From positions 32,001-96,000 of the forward strand of contig CAWAPJ010000008.1 in assembly GCA_963783885.1 (NCBI GenBank): DNA of 64,000 nucleotides, in the 5' to 3' direction. A program made the translations under genes and the position numbers. The notes under the pieces were generated by a model. That model was not told the DNA's origin. It worked only from the letters and a program-made list of their open reading frames with translations, and ran no database searches. The stretch's first letter is position 1, and the number at the start of each line of letters is the position of its first letter. The DNA is from Waddliaceae bacterium (GTDB taxonomy: Bacteria; Chlamydiota; Chlamydiia; Chlamydiales; SLFE01). Positions 31,422 to 44,237 of this stretch are shown in pieces.

Positions 31422-32252
31422 ATGAGAAGTTTTTTTCTTTTTCTGGCAGCAATTTTATTTACCTCTGGACTTTTTGCAGAGGACAAGGAAAGGTGGGTAG
31501 CCTACTATTCCGATAAAGCTCCTATCGAGGCTTTTGATCCGTATTCTCTTATTGTTTTGGATTCCGATGACCACCCCACCCTTGAAGCTTTGAAGGAAGG
31601 AGGCAAGACTCTATTGGGATATCTCAGTTTAGGGGAGGTTGAAAATAATCGGTGGTGGTATCCCGATGTCAAAAATGAAGGGATTTTACTTCATGAGAAC
31701 AAACTTTGGCCTGGATCTTTTTTTGTCGACCTTCGCGATCCCAGATGGGCCAAAAGAGTGATTGAGGATTTGATCCCTTGTCTGCTTCATATGGGATTCG
31801 ACGGGTTGTTTTTAGATACCCTTGACAATGCCGAGGAGCTAGAACATGAAAATCTTGCCGCGTATCAGGGGATGACTCAGGCAGCGGCTCACCTTGTTAT
31901 GGCAATCAAAATGCACTATCCCCACATTCCCGTCATGGTGAACAGGGCCTATTTTCTTCTTCCCGAGACTGTGGGCATCATCGATATGGAGCTGGGCGAG
32001 GATGTGATGACGACCTACGATTTTAAGAAGAAAAAATACCTCAAACAGCCCAAAGATATTTACGAAGAGCAGGTAAAGCTGCTTAAGGAAGCTAAGAAGG
32101 GTAATCCTAAACTAAAAGTTTACACTTTGGATTATTGGTATCCCGATAAGGCCGAATATATTAAGAAAATTTACCAGACAGAGAGGGAGAACGGATTTAT
32201 CCCTTATGTCGGAACAATCGAACTGGATAAAATTGTCCCGGAGCCGAAATGA
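31422..32252 (+). CDS. Periplasmic endo-alpha-1,4-(N-acetyl)galactosaminidase; stand-alone PelA hydrolase-like domain (GH166/GH114-like)
   Basis: Signal peptide; YLSLGE, GFDGLFLDTLD and VNRAY motifs; first gene of the pel cluster. Confidence 0.8.
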   Translation: MRSFFLFLAAILFTSGLFAEDKERWVAYYSDKAPIEAFDPYSLIVLDSDDHPTLEALKEGGKTLLGYLSLGEVENNRWWYPDVKNEGILLHENKLWPGSFFVDLRDPRWAKRVIEDLIPCLLHMGFDGLFLDTLDNAEELEHENLAAYQGMTQAAAHLVMAIKMHYPHIPVMVNRAYFLLPETVGIIDMELGEDVMTTYDFKKKKYLKQPKDIYEEQVKLLKEAKKGNPKLKVYTLDYWYPDKAEYIKKIYQTERENGFIPYVGTIELDKIVPEPK

Positions 32253-34513
32253 ACAAAAATTTTATCTTTATCTGCCTCATGCTTCCTTTTGCCTTGTTTG
32301 GGCAAAACGTTCCCCGAAAGATTATCGCGCTCTACGATAGCAATATTCATAGGGACCTTTATTTTACTAAAACGCACCAGCTTGCCGAAATGCCTCTGAA
32401 TCATTTGGGTTATATTTTTGAATATCATGATATTCGAAGAGAGCTTCCCGACTTAGGAGATCGCGAAGATGTTGTTGGGGTCATTGCCTGGTTTGATGAA
32501 GAGACGCAATTATCTTTGGATGTTGCGAAAAAATTATTTGACTGGTCTTTACGTAGTCTGGATTTGGGAAAAAAGTTTCTTCTAATGGGGCAGCCGATTT
32601 TTATTCCCGAAAACACGGGCCTTCCTCTAGAAAAAATGAACACATTTTGGGAAAAGCTAGGTCTTAGGATAACAGGCGATTGGGTCGCAAAAACTTATTC
32701 AGTGAAACTTGTAGAGCCCCATCCTTACATGACCGGCTTCGAACGATCGTACAAAGAGCCTTACGACACTTATGTTGAAGTGCTTAAAACTTCTGACAAG
32801 ACGACAAGCTACCTCAGCGCCATTGCCGAGGGGCGCGAGTATCCCAAATCGGTTTTGATGGCGATAGCTCCAAATGGAGGGTATGTAGCCAATGATTATG
32901 CGGTTTTTTTTCTGTTTGAGGAGGGGAAAAGCACCCGGAAGTGGTATATTAATCCCTTTTTGTTTTTTCAAAAGGTGTTTGACCGAAATAATATTCCCAA
33001 GCCCGACACGACAACAATCGCGGGTAGAAGGATTTACTACAGTCAAATTGACGGCGATGGATGGAACAACCAAACTGAAATCAAAGAGTACCCCTTTGGA
33101 ACTATCTCCGCCAGGGTACTTGCCGAGAGCATTATTGAAAAGTACCCCGATTTGCCGGTAACCGTCGGGCCAATCGCTGCTGATGTTGATCCCGACTGGG
33201 TGGCTTTGAGCGATTCTCGTGCCGAGGCTAAGAAAATTTTCAGCCTTCCCAATGTCGAAGTCGGATGCCATACTTTTACCCATCCGTTCGACTGGGAATT
33301 TTTCAAAGATTATAAACCTGCAGATGAAATTCCTTTTTTATCCCGATATCCCAACGGCAGCTGGCTCGGCAAGGGGTTTATCGCTCGGGTTCGAAGCGCC
33401 TTTGAAGGGTACAGTTTTTTTACAAGAAAGGACACTACGGTTGAAGATGAAGAGGTTAAGGGTAAAAAGAAAGAAGCGAAAGCTTTTGACGACAGCTATA
33501 GTGTTCCGAGGGCCTATGCCTTAAAGCCTTTTAACTTGGAACTTGAAGTGAAAGGAGCGATCAAATATATCGACGCGCTCGCTCCCAAGGGGAAAAAAGT
33601 CGCTCTTTACCAATGGTCTGGCAACTGCCGCCCTTTTTATGCGGCGTTAAAAGATGTTATCCAATCCGGGGTTATGAATATCAATGGCGGCGATACTCGG
33701 TTTGACAATGTTTATGCATCTTATGGATGGGTGGCGCCGCTTGGCCGCGAGGTGCGCGACCTGAGGCAGATCTATTCTTCCAATGCCAATGAAAATCTTT
33801 ATACGAACCTTTGGAGGAGCGATTTTTTTGGGTTCAATATTCTTCCTCAGACATTTAAAAATACCGAAATCCCGATTCGCATACGCCCTATGGATGTGTA
33901 TTACCATGTCTACAGCGCTCAAAAATATCCCAGCCTCAAAGCTGTGCAGCAAAATTTGGATTATGTGAAGACGCAAAATCCCTCTCCAGTGAGGACCAGC
34001 GAGTTTTCATCGATCGTTTATGGATTTTACTCAGCCGATATCGTTCAAAAGGACCGGCGTGCATGGGAATTTCAAGACCGGGGCGATTTGCAGACGATCC
34101 GCTTCGATCGCGCGACCTTGGAGTCTGTCGACTTTTCCAAATCCCAAGGAGTGATTGGCCAGAGATATTTACAGGGAAGCCTTTATGTTTATCTCGATTC
34201 GAAAATCGACAATGCTCTTATAGCCTTGAAGGACAACAAAAATTATTTCTCCTTGCCGGGAGAACCCTTATTTTATCTTATCGAGAGCCGCTGGCAAATT
34301 TCAAATTTGCAAAGGAGCGGGCAGGGCATCGAGTTTACAGCTGCAGGCTTTGGTCCCGGAGAGATGACTTGGAACGTTCCGAGCGAAGGCAAATATGAGG
34401 TGAGCGTGGACAAGGGGGAAAATCTTCTCGCTGCTTCCAAAAATCGGAAGATCAATTTTGTGATCAATCAATCGGCAATAGAACCGGTTTCGATTAAAAT
34501 TAGAGGAAAATGA
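32249..34513 (+). CDS. pelA: PelA-like polysaccharide deacetylase (CE4-like fold)
   Basis: PKPDTTTIAGRRIYYSQIDGDG, HTFTHPFDW, WSGNC, NINGG, NENLYTNLW and YYHVYS correspond to PelA deacetylase motifs; signal peptide. Confidence 0.85.
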   Translation: MNKNFIFICLMLPFALFGQNVPRKIIALYDSNIHRDLYFTKTHQLAEMPLNHLGYIFEYHDIRRELPDLGDREDVVGVIAWFDEETQLSLDVAKKLFDWSLRSLDLGKKFLLMGQPIFIPENTGLPLEKMNTFWEKLGLRITGDWVAKTYSVKLVEPHPYMTGFERSYKEPYDTYVEVLKTSDKTTSYLSAIAEGREYPKSVLMAIAPNGGYVANDYAVFFLFEEGKSTRKWYINPFLFFQKVFDRNNIPKPDTTTIAGRRIYYSQIDGDGWNNQTEIKEYPFGTISARVLAESIIEKYPDLPVTVGPIAADVDPDWVALSDSRAEAKKIFSLPNVEVGCHTFTHPFDWEFFKDYKPADEIPFLSRYPNGSWLGKGFIARVRSAFEGYSFFTRKDTTVEDEEVKGKKKEAKAFDDSYSVPRAYALKPFNLELEVKGAIKYIDALAPKGKKVALYQWSGNCRPFYAALKDVIQSGVMNINGGDTRFDNVYASYGWVAPLGREVRDLRQIYSSNANENLYTNLWRSDFFGFNILPQTFKNTEIPIRIRPMDVYYHVYSAQKYPSLKAVQQNLDYVKTQNPSPVRTSEFSSIVYGFYSADIVQKDRRAWEFQDRGDLQTIRFDRATLESVDFSKSQGVIGQRYLQGSLYVYLDSKIDNALIALKDNKNYFSLPGEPLFYLIESRWQISNLQRSGQGIEFTAAGFGPGEMTWNVPSEGKYEVSVDKGENLLAASKNRKINFVINQSAIEPVSIKIRGK

Positions 34514-42855: not shown

Positions 42856-44237
42856 TGGCGGGAATTGGATTTGTATTAAGAAAATTGACTAAAAGGGGAG
42901 ACCTCTCAGGGGCGATTGAAGCTTATTTTCACGCGATCTTTGCCTCGACGGGCCCCTGGATTTTGACTATACTGACTGTCTGGGCTTTCTTTTTTGTTGG
43001 AGATTATTGGCGGCTCTCCGAATATGTCGAAGAATTTAGGATCATCATTCTCTATAACTTTTCATTTTCCCTTGTATTCACCGCTCCGCTGACGATGATT
43101 GCGACAAGATATCTCGCCGACTGTTTTTTCCGGATGGATGTGTCCAAAGTCTCGGGACTTCTGCTCGGCACCTTGTCTGTTCAGCTGACCGCCTCTTTCC
43201 CGGTCGCCGCCTATTTTTACTTTGGCGTGGTTTCCATGAGCCATGCGATGGCTTTTTTATCCGTCATCAATTTTTTGCTCATTTCAGGCATATGGCTCAC
43301 GATGGTTTTTATCTCTTCGCTGAAATATTATTCTGCGATCACTTTTTCTTTCTTGACCGGTATGGCCCTTGCCATCTTTTTAGCCTATGTACTTTCCGGA
43401 ATTGTCGGCCCTGAGGGTATGATTCTCGGTTTTGATATCGGGATAGCTTTTATCTTAAGCTCCTTCATATCGGTTATCCTGGCCGAATATCCCCACAATG
43501 TGGAAAACCCCTTTCTTTTCCTCAAATACGGAAAAAAATATTGGCAGGTGGCCTTATCGGGAACCTGTTACAATTTAGGTATCTGGGTCGATAAATGGAT
43601 TATGTGGTTCTCTCCGGAAAGGCGGCAGCTTCCAAACGGCATGATTGTCTATCCCGAATATGATGTGGCCATGTTCGTCGCTTATCTCACGATCATTCCG
43701 GCAATGGCCCTATTTTTGATACAGCAGGAAACCTCGTTTTTTGAAAGGTATGTCGCTTTTTATCGCGGCATACTCGGGCATGACTCTTTTCGAAAAATTC
43801 AGAAAAACCACAGAAGCATGGTGGACAACATCATGGAAAATGGGAGAAACATCATTCTCCTTCAATCAATCATTTGCGTTGCCTGCCTCTTTCTAGCACC
43901 GTCTATTATGGGACTTTTGTATATGAATCTCGTTCAGATTTCTGTCTTTCGCTTCGGCGTATTGGGCGCGTCCTTTCAAATCATCAGTCTTTTTCTCATG
44001 ATCCTCCTCTCATATTTCGATGATCGTAAGGATGTTGTGATTATAGCTTTGGTCTTTGTTACAAGCAACGCGCTCTTTACATGGATAGGGATGCATCTGG
44101 GCTTCGCTTTTTACGGATATGGCTATTTTCTTTCGACAATTGTGACTTTTATCGTTTCTGCCGTATTAGCCGAAAGATATATCAGTCAATTAGTCTACCA
44201 TACATTTGTGACGCGAAACCTTGCTGAAATTGGATAA
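42855..44237 (+). CDS. pelG: Pel exopolysaccharide transporter PelG
   Basis: Canonical N-terminus MAGIGFVLRKL; GPW, TRYLAD, GIWVDK, YD..MF.AYL and ETSF motifs; polytopic membrane protein. Confidence 0.95.
   Translation: MAGIGFVLRKLTKRGDLSGAIEAYFHAIFASTGPWILTILTVWAFFFVGDYWRLSEYVEEFRIIILYNFSFSLVFTAPLTMIATRYLADCFFRMDVSKVSGLLLGTLSVQLTASFPVAAYFYFGVVSMSHAMAFLSVINFLLISGIWLTMVFISSLKYYSAITFSFLTGMALAIFLAYVLSGIVGPEGMILGFDIGIAFILSSFISVILAEYPHNVENPFLFLKYGKKYWQVALSGTCYNLGIWVDKWIMWFSPERRQLPNGMIVYPEYDVAMFVAYLTIIPAMALFLIQQETSFFERYVAFYRGILGHDSFRKIQKNHRSMVDNIMENGRNIILLQSIICVACLFLAPSIMGLLYMNLVQISVFRFGVLGASFQIISLFLMILLSYFDDRKDVVIIALVFVTSNALFTWIGMHLGFAFYGYGYFLSTIVTFIVSAVLAERYISQLVYHTFVTRNLAEIG

Follow-up and report, generated by a model that had tools for sequence, protein, structure and literature searches.

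Does a chlamydia, a member of a group described in PMC9816063 as obligate endosymbionts, carry a machine for the synthesis and secretion of the exopolysaccharide Pel, and how would such a machine be built and controlled? The question is raised by a cluster of seven pel genes in a 64,000-nt stretch of DNA (here called the window) from a Waddliaceae bacterium (GCA_963783885.1, genome G000 below; contig CAWAPJ010000008.1, positions 32,001-96,000), where all seven lie on the plus strand between the divergent alaS (28717-31335, minus strand) and tkt (plus strand). The evidence points to a probably working, long-resident Pel-type machine that would act independently of cyclic di-GMP (c-di-GMP), without PelC, and supply the extracellular stage with a coat or glue, its role, polymer identity and expression being predictions. 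The features of the locus are the following (position, strand, description and basis; TPR, tetratricopeptide repeat; ORF, open reading frame):

31422..32252, plus strand: PelA-type glycoside hydrolase in a gene of its own, 276 aa, hydrophobic N-terminus (PF03537, PDB match, motifs)
32249..34513, plus strand: PelA-type deacetylase, 754 aa, 4-base overlap with the hydrolase gene (PDB match, motifs)
34514..34994, no strand: non-coding gap of 481 bp, with no second copy in the genome (ORF and promoter scan, comparison with genome G379)
34995..38903, plus strand: PelB, with N-terminal hydrophobic helix, TPR scaffold and C-terminal outer-membrane beta-barrel (TPR Pfam families, structure model and Foldseek)
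38911..40282, plus strand: PelD, about 456 aa, with membrane part, coiled coil, GAF and degenerate GGDEF (structure model and Foldseek)
40275..41369, plus strand: PelE-like protein, N-terminal membrane segments and TPR (TPR, hydropathy, position)
41362..42855, plus strand: PelF, glycosyltransferase family 4 (GT4) polymerase with EX7E motif SISEGQPLSILE (NF038011, PF11997)
42855..44237, plus strand: PelG, inner-membrane exporter (PF16933)

The ORFs measure, in order, 276, 754, 1302, 191+320, 364, 497 and 460 aa. The initial annotation had read them as a co-oriented Pel cluster in a chlamydia, an identification borne out by family cut-offs and by PDB and fold matches, while its gene set needed two corrections, namely that the split of pelD is an assembly error and that there is no pelC. 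PelF scored 438 bits against the NF038011 cut-off of 100 and also matched PF11997; its EX7E motif is intact in the window and present in 26 of 27 chlamydial PelF. PelG scored 417 bits against the PF16933 cut-off of 29. Among solved structures, 5tcb, from PelA, was the best match of the hydrolase (E 1e-17; Ega3, E 0.007), and the catalytic residues D132 and E193 are kept, the latter aligned to the Glu replaced by Ala in 5tsy. The deacetylase matched PelA (9cgy, E 5e-55) with both metal-site motifs, DGDG and HTFTHP, intact (residues 266-271 and 340-346). Domains and catalytic motifs thus predict that both PelA activities are encoded, in two ORFs here and in every chlamydial locus where both parts were seen; no single bifunctional PelA polypeptide occurs in the window. 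Deacetylase genes are tandemly duplicated in genomes G324 and G038 (loci L045 and L031).

The remaining genes were assigned mainly by structure and position. The last 330 aa of PelB were modelled by AlphaFold as a beta-barrel (predicted local distance difference test, pLDDT, 95.5) whose chain ends in an aromatic residue; the best Foldseek match was PelB of the PelBC complex (9h80_M, template-modelling score, TM, 0.76), followed, as second to fourth matches, by the porins PgaA (poly-N-acetylglucosamine) and BcsC (cellulose) at TM 0.66-0.68, which join TPR and barrel as PelB does. The systems of these two porins use GT2 synthases, make other polymers and are not known to need a PelC ring. The top seven Foldseek matches of the model of the 320-aa PelD ORF (pLDDT 91.6) were all PelD, a protein that sequence-only searches of the PDB did not reach; the whole-chain TM was low (0.33-0.38) and the root-mean-square deviation high, which may reflect a different domain arrangement. 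PelE was assigned mainly by position, predicted membrane segments and TPR, and the chlamydial PelE profile reached the Azospirillum gene in the same position (E 3e-69) but the canonical gene of locus L142 only weakly (E 5e-4).

Compared with pelABCDEFG of P. aeruginosa (5tcb, 9cgy, 9h80, 4dn0), the chlamydial locus shares PelF, PelG, the PelD fold, the TPR and barrel of PelB, the PelA domains with their catalytic residues and the order B-D-E-F-G, whereas it has a split PelA, no PelC and a lost RxxD site, and its genome, of an obligate intracellular host lineage, yielded no GGDEF or EAL protein. Since neither PelC nor a fused PelA nor an intact inhibitory site (I-site) was found, the system departs from standard Gram-negative Pel. 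Split-PelA loci of Alphaproteobacteria and other metagenome-assembled genomes (MAGs), e.g. Azospirillum thermophilum (NZ_CP029356.1), are built alike (hydrolase, deacetylase, TPR/barrel, D, E, F, G), with PelF 45-53% identical to the chlamydial protein and many loci likewise without PelC, although Azospirillum keeps PelC and a linked epimerase; no literature on these loci was met, no search having been aimed at them. The streptococcal pelDEA(DA)FG loci, as far as described in PMC7112168, PMC7890745 and PMC12345266, resemble the chlamydial ones in a c-di-GMP-blind PelD, the absence of cyclases, a separate hydrolase gene and linked, maybe regulatory genes. They differ in belonging to monoderms, in lacking PelB and in a PelD with a short-chain dehydrogenase/reductase (SDR) domain and no GGDEF, whereas PelD of chlamydial clade A (defined below) keeps the fold and loses the site.

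The host genome is chlamydial, because a gene for the histone-like Hc1 lies in the window, five ATP/ADP (TLC) translocase genes were found, and the genome is classed in one order with Chlamydia-sized genomes of 1.0-1.3 Mb; OmcB-type matches were weak and under the cut-off. The profile search across Chlamydiota suggested with the initial annotation found PelG above the cut-off in 30 of 401 sampled genomes from 12 families, including all five genomes of family f1, to which G000 belongs, and in 0/30 genomes of family f4, where one weak match fell beneath it. The labels 'Chlamydia-type' for f4 and 'Parachlamydiales-like' for a large clade were given by inference, in part from tree position and the named neighbours L063, P0035 and P0051. 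Of 31 other chlamydial loci, 17 have all seven genes on the piece of DNA retrieved; the remaining ones are mostly cut by contig or stretch ends, G234 is fragmented and G239 holds an orphan pelG. Judged by the ratio of nonsynonymous to synonymous substitutions (dN/dS) against G379, a genome of the same genus, every pel gene is under purifying selection (0.05-0.15, PelG 0.053; for comparison alaS 0.10, tkt 0.06, hemE 0.12). The order alaS-pel-tkt is kept in G379 at 82-94% identity, and the third-position GC content (GC3) of the pel genes falls in the 31st-49th percentile of long ORFs of the genome.

The history of the locus was followed in quick tree searches, with approximate likelihood-ratio support of the Shimodaira-Hasegawa type (SH) only, on the 110 PelF and 103 PelG rows kept after length and score limits; relatives were 80 of 592 loci, and duplicates (L060, L064, L137) and genomes without usable rpoB (G284, G132, G236, G368) were left out. 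Two chlamydial clades were recovered in PelF, PelG and joint trees, clade A with 18-19 rows (SH 89-99) and clade B with 9 rows (SH 98-100), besides a pair near clade A and the unrelated locus of G074. The PelG tree placed 30 chlamydial rows and one Francisellaceae row on one branch (SH 93), and the PelF and joint trees left clades A and B unresolved among MAGs named Rickettsiales, other Alphaproteobacteria, Bdellovibrionales, Lambdaproteobacteria and Francisellaceae. A single chlamydial origin was neither rejected nor shown (approximately unbiased test, p 0.277; 29 rows against 22, L041 left out, LG+G4). A clade of 25 rows (SH 99) took in the clade-A genomes in an RpoBC tree of 56 genomes, where family f3, home to clade-B loci, was sister to f4 (SH 100). 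Patristic distances of PelF+PelG and RpoBC correlated (Spearman 0.61 in 27 genomes, 0/2000 permutations as high; 0.73 without G234, 0.63 in clade A alone), and 11 of 24 splits are common to both trees, including the three of f1, so clade A is mostly vertical; the clade-B correlation was not significant (0.27, 149/2000 permutations). The locus of G234 looks like a transfer between chlamydiae. A recent transfer of pel was rejected on GC3 and tree congruence. The PelF/PelG trees proposed for tracing a donor recovered clades A and B, but naming the donor lineage failed on weak deep branches, with 80 of the 592 loci compared.

The initial annotation had also held that alaS and tkt are neighbours and that the cluster looked inserted into conserved synteny. 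The two genes are indeed adjacent and divergent in the small Chlamydia-sized genomes G004 and G022; in G044 and G112 they are separated by about 3.5 kb free of pel genes. Since other genomes keep alaS and tkt close without pel, the position is a trait of family f1 in an old synteny: pel genes adjoin tkt in 4 of 5 f1 genomes, and the arrangement of the window is typical of that family alone. The interval is therefore old, as proposed, but the insertion was not a one-off with a recent donor, given the 30 of 401 genomes, the host-like GC3 and the mostly vertical inheritance.

Other loci show variations of their own. In L038 (G014:C1:20500-40400) an inversion breaks the operon and places tkt-hemE-hemF between pelD-G and pelB. 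L041 (G074:C67:60000-79776) is a separately acquired locus on a long branch that does not group with the rest of the chlamydial loci. A receiver gene immediately precedes its pelD, and its pelE and pelF are separated by a HEAT-repeat gene of 675 aa. In clade B, pelB is divided into a TPR gene and a barrel gene. A Spherulin-4 gene (PF12138) adjoins pelG in G147 (L053:1704-3176), an arrangement also known from the fungal galactosaminogalactan cluster. Pel-type loci were also seen in MAGs named Rickettsiales, Francisellaceae, Candidatus Odyssella and Bdellovibrionales (L061, L065, L069, L089, L095, L128, L131, L067), several of them among the nearest relatives in the 80 of 592 loci, a hint that bacteria with a host-associated or predatory life may have exchanged them.

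PelC was matched in 0/30 pelG-positive chlamydiae by a 13-row profile (A6) that matches PelC structures and 2/2 control genomes, and the best match of a 25-seed PelC profile in G000 had an E of only 1.8. Among non-chlamydial loci PelC was found in 19 of 65, and in 0/18 of the nearest non-chlamydial clades; its loss is on that account older than chlamydiae. A highly divergent PelC substitute may exist. A pelC hidden in the 481-bp gap between the deacetylase gene and pelB was rejected, as the gap has no plus-strand ORF longer than 34 aa and no profile match. The last ~110 bp of the gap are 84% conserved in G379, and a sigma-70-like site at 34940-34967 possibly represents a second promoter ahead of pelB, in a scan that is not diagnostic (14 sites vs 7.3 +/- 2.8 in shuffles). 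Where the window has this gap, G379 holds an unrelated 418-aa ORF with no Pfam match (L032:12837-14093).

In PelD of the window the RxxD site has become SHLD (S at 40085) and the Arg402 position Asn, in a register set through the canonical PelD of L142 to 4dmz, where RGLD falls on SHLD. With S, D and N at the I-site residues R367, D370 and R402 (PMC7112168), two of the three ligand residues are replaced, and the I-site for c-di-GMP is, to judge by its residues, lost. RxxD was found in 0/21 clade-A PelD (20 altered, 1 without the domain) and 3/7 clade-B PelD (4 without the domain) and is absent in G074, a total of 3/29 chlamydial PelD vs 50/74 non-chlamydial ones, most of which keep it. No GGDEF or EAL protein matched in G000 (89% complete). 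Among Chlamydiota, GGDEF matches occur in 146/401 genomes (9/30 pelG-positive ones, 21/23 in f3, 0/30 in f4) and EAL matches in 3/30 pelG-positive genomes. Cyclase motifs were inspected in 8 of the 9 pelG-positive GGDEF genomes (G371, a weak match, was left out): GG(D/E)E is intact in G147, G252, G324, G105 and G372 and degenerate in G014, G137 and G180. The RxxD keepers are G147, G252 and G324, each with intact cyclase motifs, and they are not independent cases because all belong to f3. As a side observation, some of the 146 genomes have intact motifs, and c-di-GMP signalling in chlamydiae looks little described in the literature.

Because the site is lost and no cyclase was found, the switch would not be c-di-GMP at the PelD I-site. 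According to the available portions of PMC7890745 and PMC7112168, a c-di-GMP-blind PelD is described only in streptococci. One alternative is that the degenerate PelD senses a second messenger (c-di-GMP via a new site, c-di-AMP or a GAF ligand), with control neither by phosphorelay nor purely transcriptional. The degenerate GGDEF fold is retained in 20/21 clade-A rows with a dN/dS of 0.11, and C. trachomatis produces c-di-AMP (PMC3663186), but the domain sequence is poorly conserved in clade A, the domain is gone in five chlamydial PelD and two of the three ligand residues are replaced, which leaves this alternative unlikely.

Instead of c-di-GMP, a histidine kinase with PAS/GAF domains and a receiver of ~130 aa, whose genes flank many chlamydial pel loci, may be a replacement switch for Pel, a candidate suggested by gene linkage. 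Within the receiver family, delimited at an arbitrary threshold of E 1e-28, are proteins of 27/401 genomes, including 19 of 20 clade-A pelG genomes, the exception being the orphan-pelG genome. A receiver gene lies next to pel in 13 of 14 non-f1 clade-A genomes; in the 14th the kinase follows pelG and the contig then ends. In family f5 (46 genomes), a full clade-A locus occurs in three genomes, and these make up three of the four receiver carriers. Shared ancestry accounts for part of this co-occurrence. G000 carries its pair elsewhere (C11:39972-42166), with a receiver (39972-40385) 44-57% identical to the pel-linked ones. A predicted complex of PelD residues 30-320 and the receiver scored 0.20 against a mark of 0.32 and carries no weight either way. 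The absence of PelC, the dead c-di-GMP site and the linked kinase/receiver pair had all been overlooked in the initial annotation.

The c-di-GMP-independent, PelC-less machine favoured here would operate as follows. PelF would polymerise a UDP-hexosamine, most likely UDP-N-acetylgalactosamine supplied by an unlinked epimerase, and PelD, PelE and PelG would carry the polymer across the inner membrane, as in Pseudomonas. To judge by their folds and catalytic residues, the separate deacetylase would render the polymer cationic, and the hydrolase, working along the TPR scaffold of PelB, would trim it in the periplasm. Exit would take place via the PelB barrel without a PelC ring, like BcsC and PgaA. 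Output would be set by transcription or by the PAS-GAF histidine kinase and the single-domain receiver, whose linkage is observed and whose action is presumed. The polymer would most likely serve the extracellular stage as a cationic coat or glue for aggregation, adhesion to hosts or surfaces and persistence between protist hosts, a role favoured by analogy with S. intermedius, where Pel drives auto-aggregation (PMC12345266). A precedent for the machine is the streptococcal PelD without GGDEF, described there as driving Pel-dependent aggregation.

Several points weigh against this reading. PelC is termed essential and a hallmark of Gram-negative Pel for P. aeruginosa in the portions available of PMC12141448. 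No epimerase is encoded in the pel locus of the window; the genome look-up proposed for pelC and an epimerase found no pelC and an unlinked GalE-like gene (C11 ~35946-36917, 3 kb from the kinase pair) whose best matches are UDP-glucose 4-epimerases, besides a UDP-glucuronate-decarboxylase-like gene. As neither candidate is close to PelX and none is linked, the sugar is not fixed; P. aeruginosa is likewise described as lacking a linked pelX (bioRxiv 2020.05.26.111013). A cyclase could be missing from G000 because the genome is 89% complete, and G105 and G372 have intact cyclase motifs yet a truncated or site-less PelD. Eight genomes that have no pelG carry the receiver too, and in 5/5 f1 genomes, G000 included, it is not linked to pel. 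The likeness of PelE to canonical PelE is weak.

The main rival for the role is a matrix of the inclusion lumen, within the wider possibility, again rather unlikely, of an active machine making a different or host-directed glycan, either another alpha-linked hexosamine polymer or one shed to the inclusion lumen or membrane by replicating cells. The five nucleotide translocases imply replication inside a host, no PelX-type epimerase is linked here, five clade-B loci carry a linked SDR enzyme (the one tested, from L053, matched nothing in the PDB at E 1e-40), and several clade-B deacetylases have an altered first motif, HGD for DGD. Against a different glycan, PelF of the window passes NF038011 and is 45-47% identical to Azospirillum PelF, the hydrolase is nearer PelA than Ega3, and the motifs of the window are canonical.

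The quality of the assembly bears on the remaining alternative. One surplus A at 39326, in an A6 run, throws pelD of the window into two frames (38911-39354 and 39320-40282). This base is missing from contigs of runs X1, X2 and X3 (one contig each, full but low depth of 2.6-4.1; X4 gave no cover), and pelD is a single ORF in G379; for these reasons the split is an assembly error. A pelD pseudogene or phase variation is ruled out for the three runs, where the frameshift is absent. The assembly may itself derive from one of these runs; the four main runs that contain the DNA are soil and salt-marsh DNA metagenomes, and no RNA run was listed, which has no bearing on expression. An X1 contig (30817-31494) covers alaS into the hydrolase gene with zero differences, which together with the gene order of G379 speaks against the chimera envisaged at the outset; no contig among the pieces listed bridges the pelG-tkt junction. 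A relic in decay or a chimeric assembly with proteobacterial DNA, for which the pelD frameshift, the orphan pelG of G239, the fragmented locus of G234 and the patchy distribution might be cited, is largely refuted already by the three runs, the X1 contig and the conserved, selected locus of G379, and is very hard to credit.

An evolutionary scenario that joins these strands is put forward as improbable in its full form. An early chlamydial ancestor, before the protist-infecting families split from the Chlamydia-type branch, would have gained a c-di-GMP-gated, PelC-less Pel; the family sister to f4 would keep the gating, the Chlamydia-type family would have lost Pel, and the Parachlamydiales-like clade would have swapped c-di-GMP for the cytoplasmic PAS-GAF kinase and a stand-alone receiver acting on PelDEFG, so that a cationic coat is made in step with the developmental cycle.

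With regard to previous knowledge, the statement that no characterised chlamydial Pel system was known holds for the literature, in that a full-text search, with most subscription papers outside its reach, returned no paper describing one and no secreted-polysaccharide system for chlamydiae was found described. Annotation does already exist, since NCBI and JGI pipelines give the name PelF or PelG to proteins from MAGs that are labelled Waddliaceae, Parachlamydiales, Chlamydiales and Chlamydiota. Neither PMC7112194 nor PMC7112168 nor the PelX preprint (bioRxiv 2020.05.26.111013) mentions chlamydiae in its main text, and the searched part of the PMC7112194 supplements does not name them either; PMC9816063 has no 'pel' or 'biofilm' in its text and no Pel term in one supplement, while its large data tables may list genes. 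Earlier Gram-negative surveys were, by the accounts available in PMC7112168 and PMC7890745, baited with PelC and would therefore overlook the chlamydial loci. That 12 families share an old, selected machine suggests that a surface or extracellular trait, for sticking, clumping or lasting between hosts, has gone unrecognised, and the machine is a candidate for a trait lost en route to the animal pathogens. It would be a natural Gram-negative Pel without PelC and without a c-di-GMP site, both held essential in Pseudomonas, and c-di-GMP-independent control of Pel, posed as an open question in the part of PMC12345266 available, gains a candidate regulator.

Elsewhere in the window, a DDE transposase (23914-24858, minus strand) has at least 9 genome copies at 98-100% identity and was therefore recently active. 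A glutamine-dependent nicotinamide adenine dinucleotide (NAD) synthase is spread over two ORFs (13668-15302, plus strand), possibly another assembly error. Tandem paralogues of 576 and 593 aa, 65% identical and with no Pfam match, lie at 8718-12233 (minus strand) and have two distant copies elsewhere in the genome.

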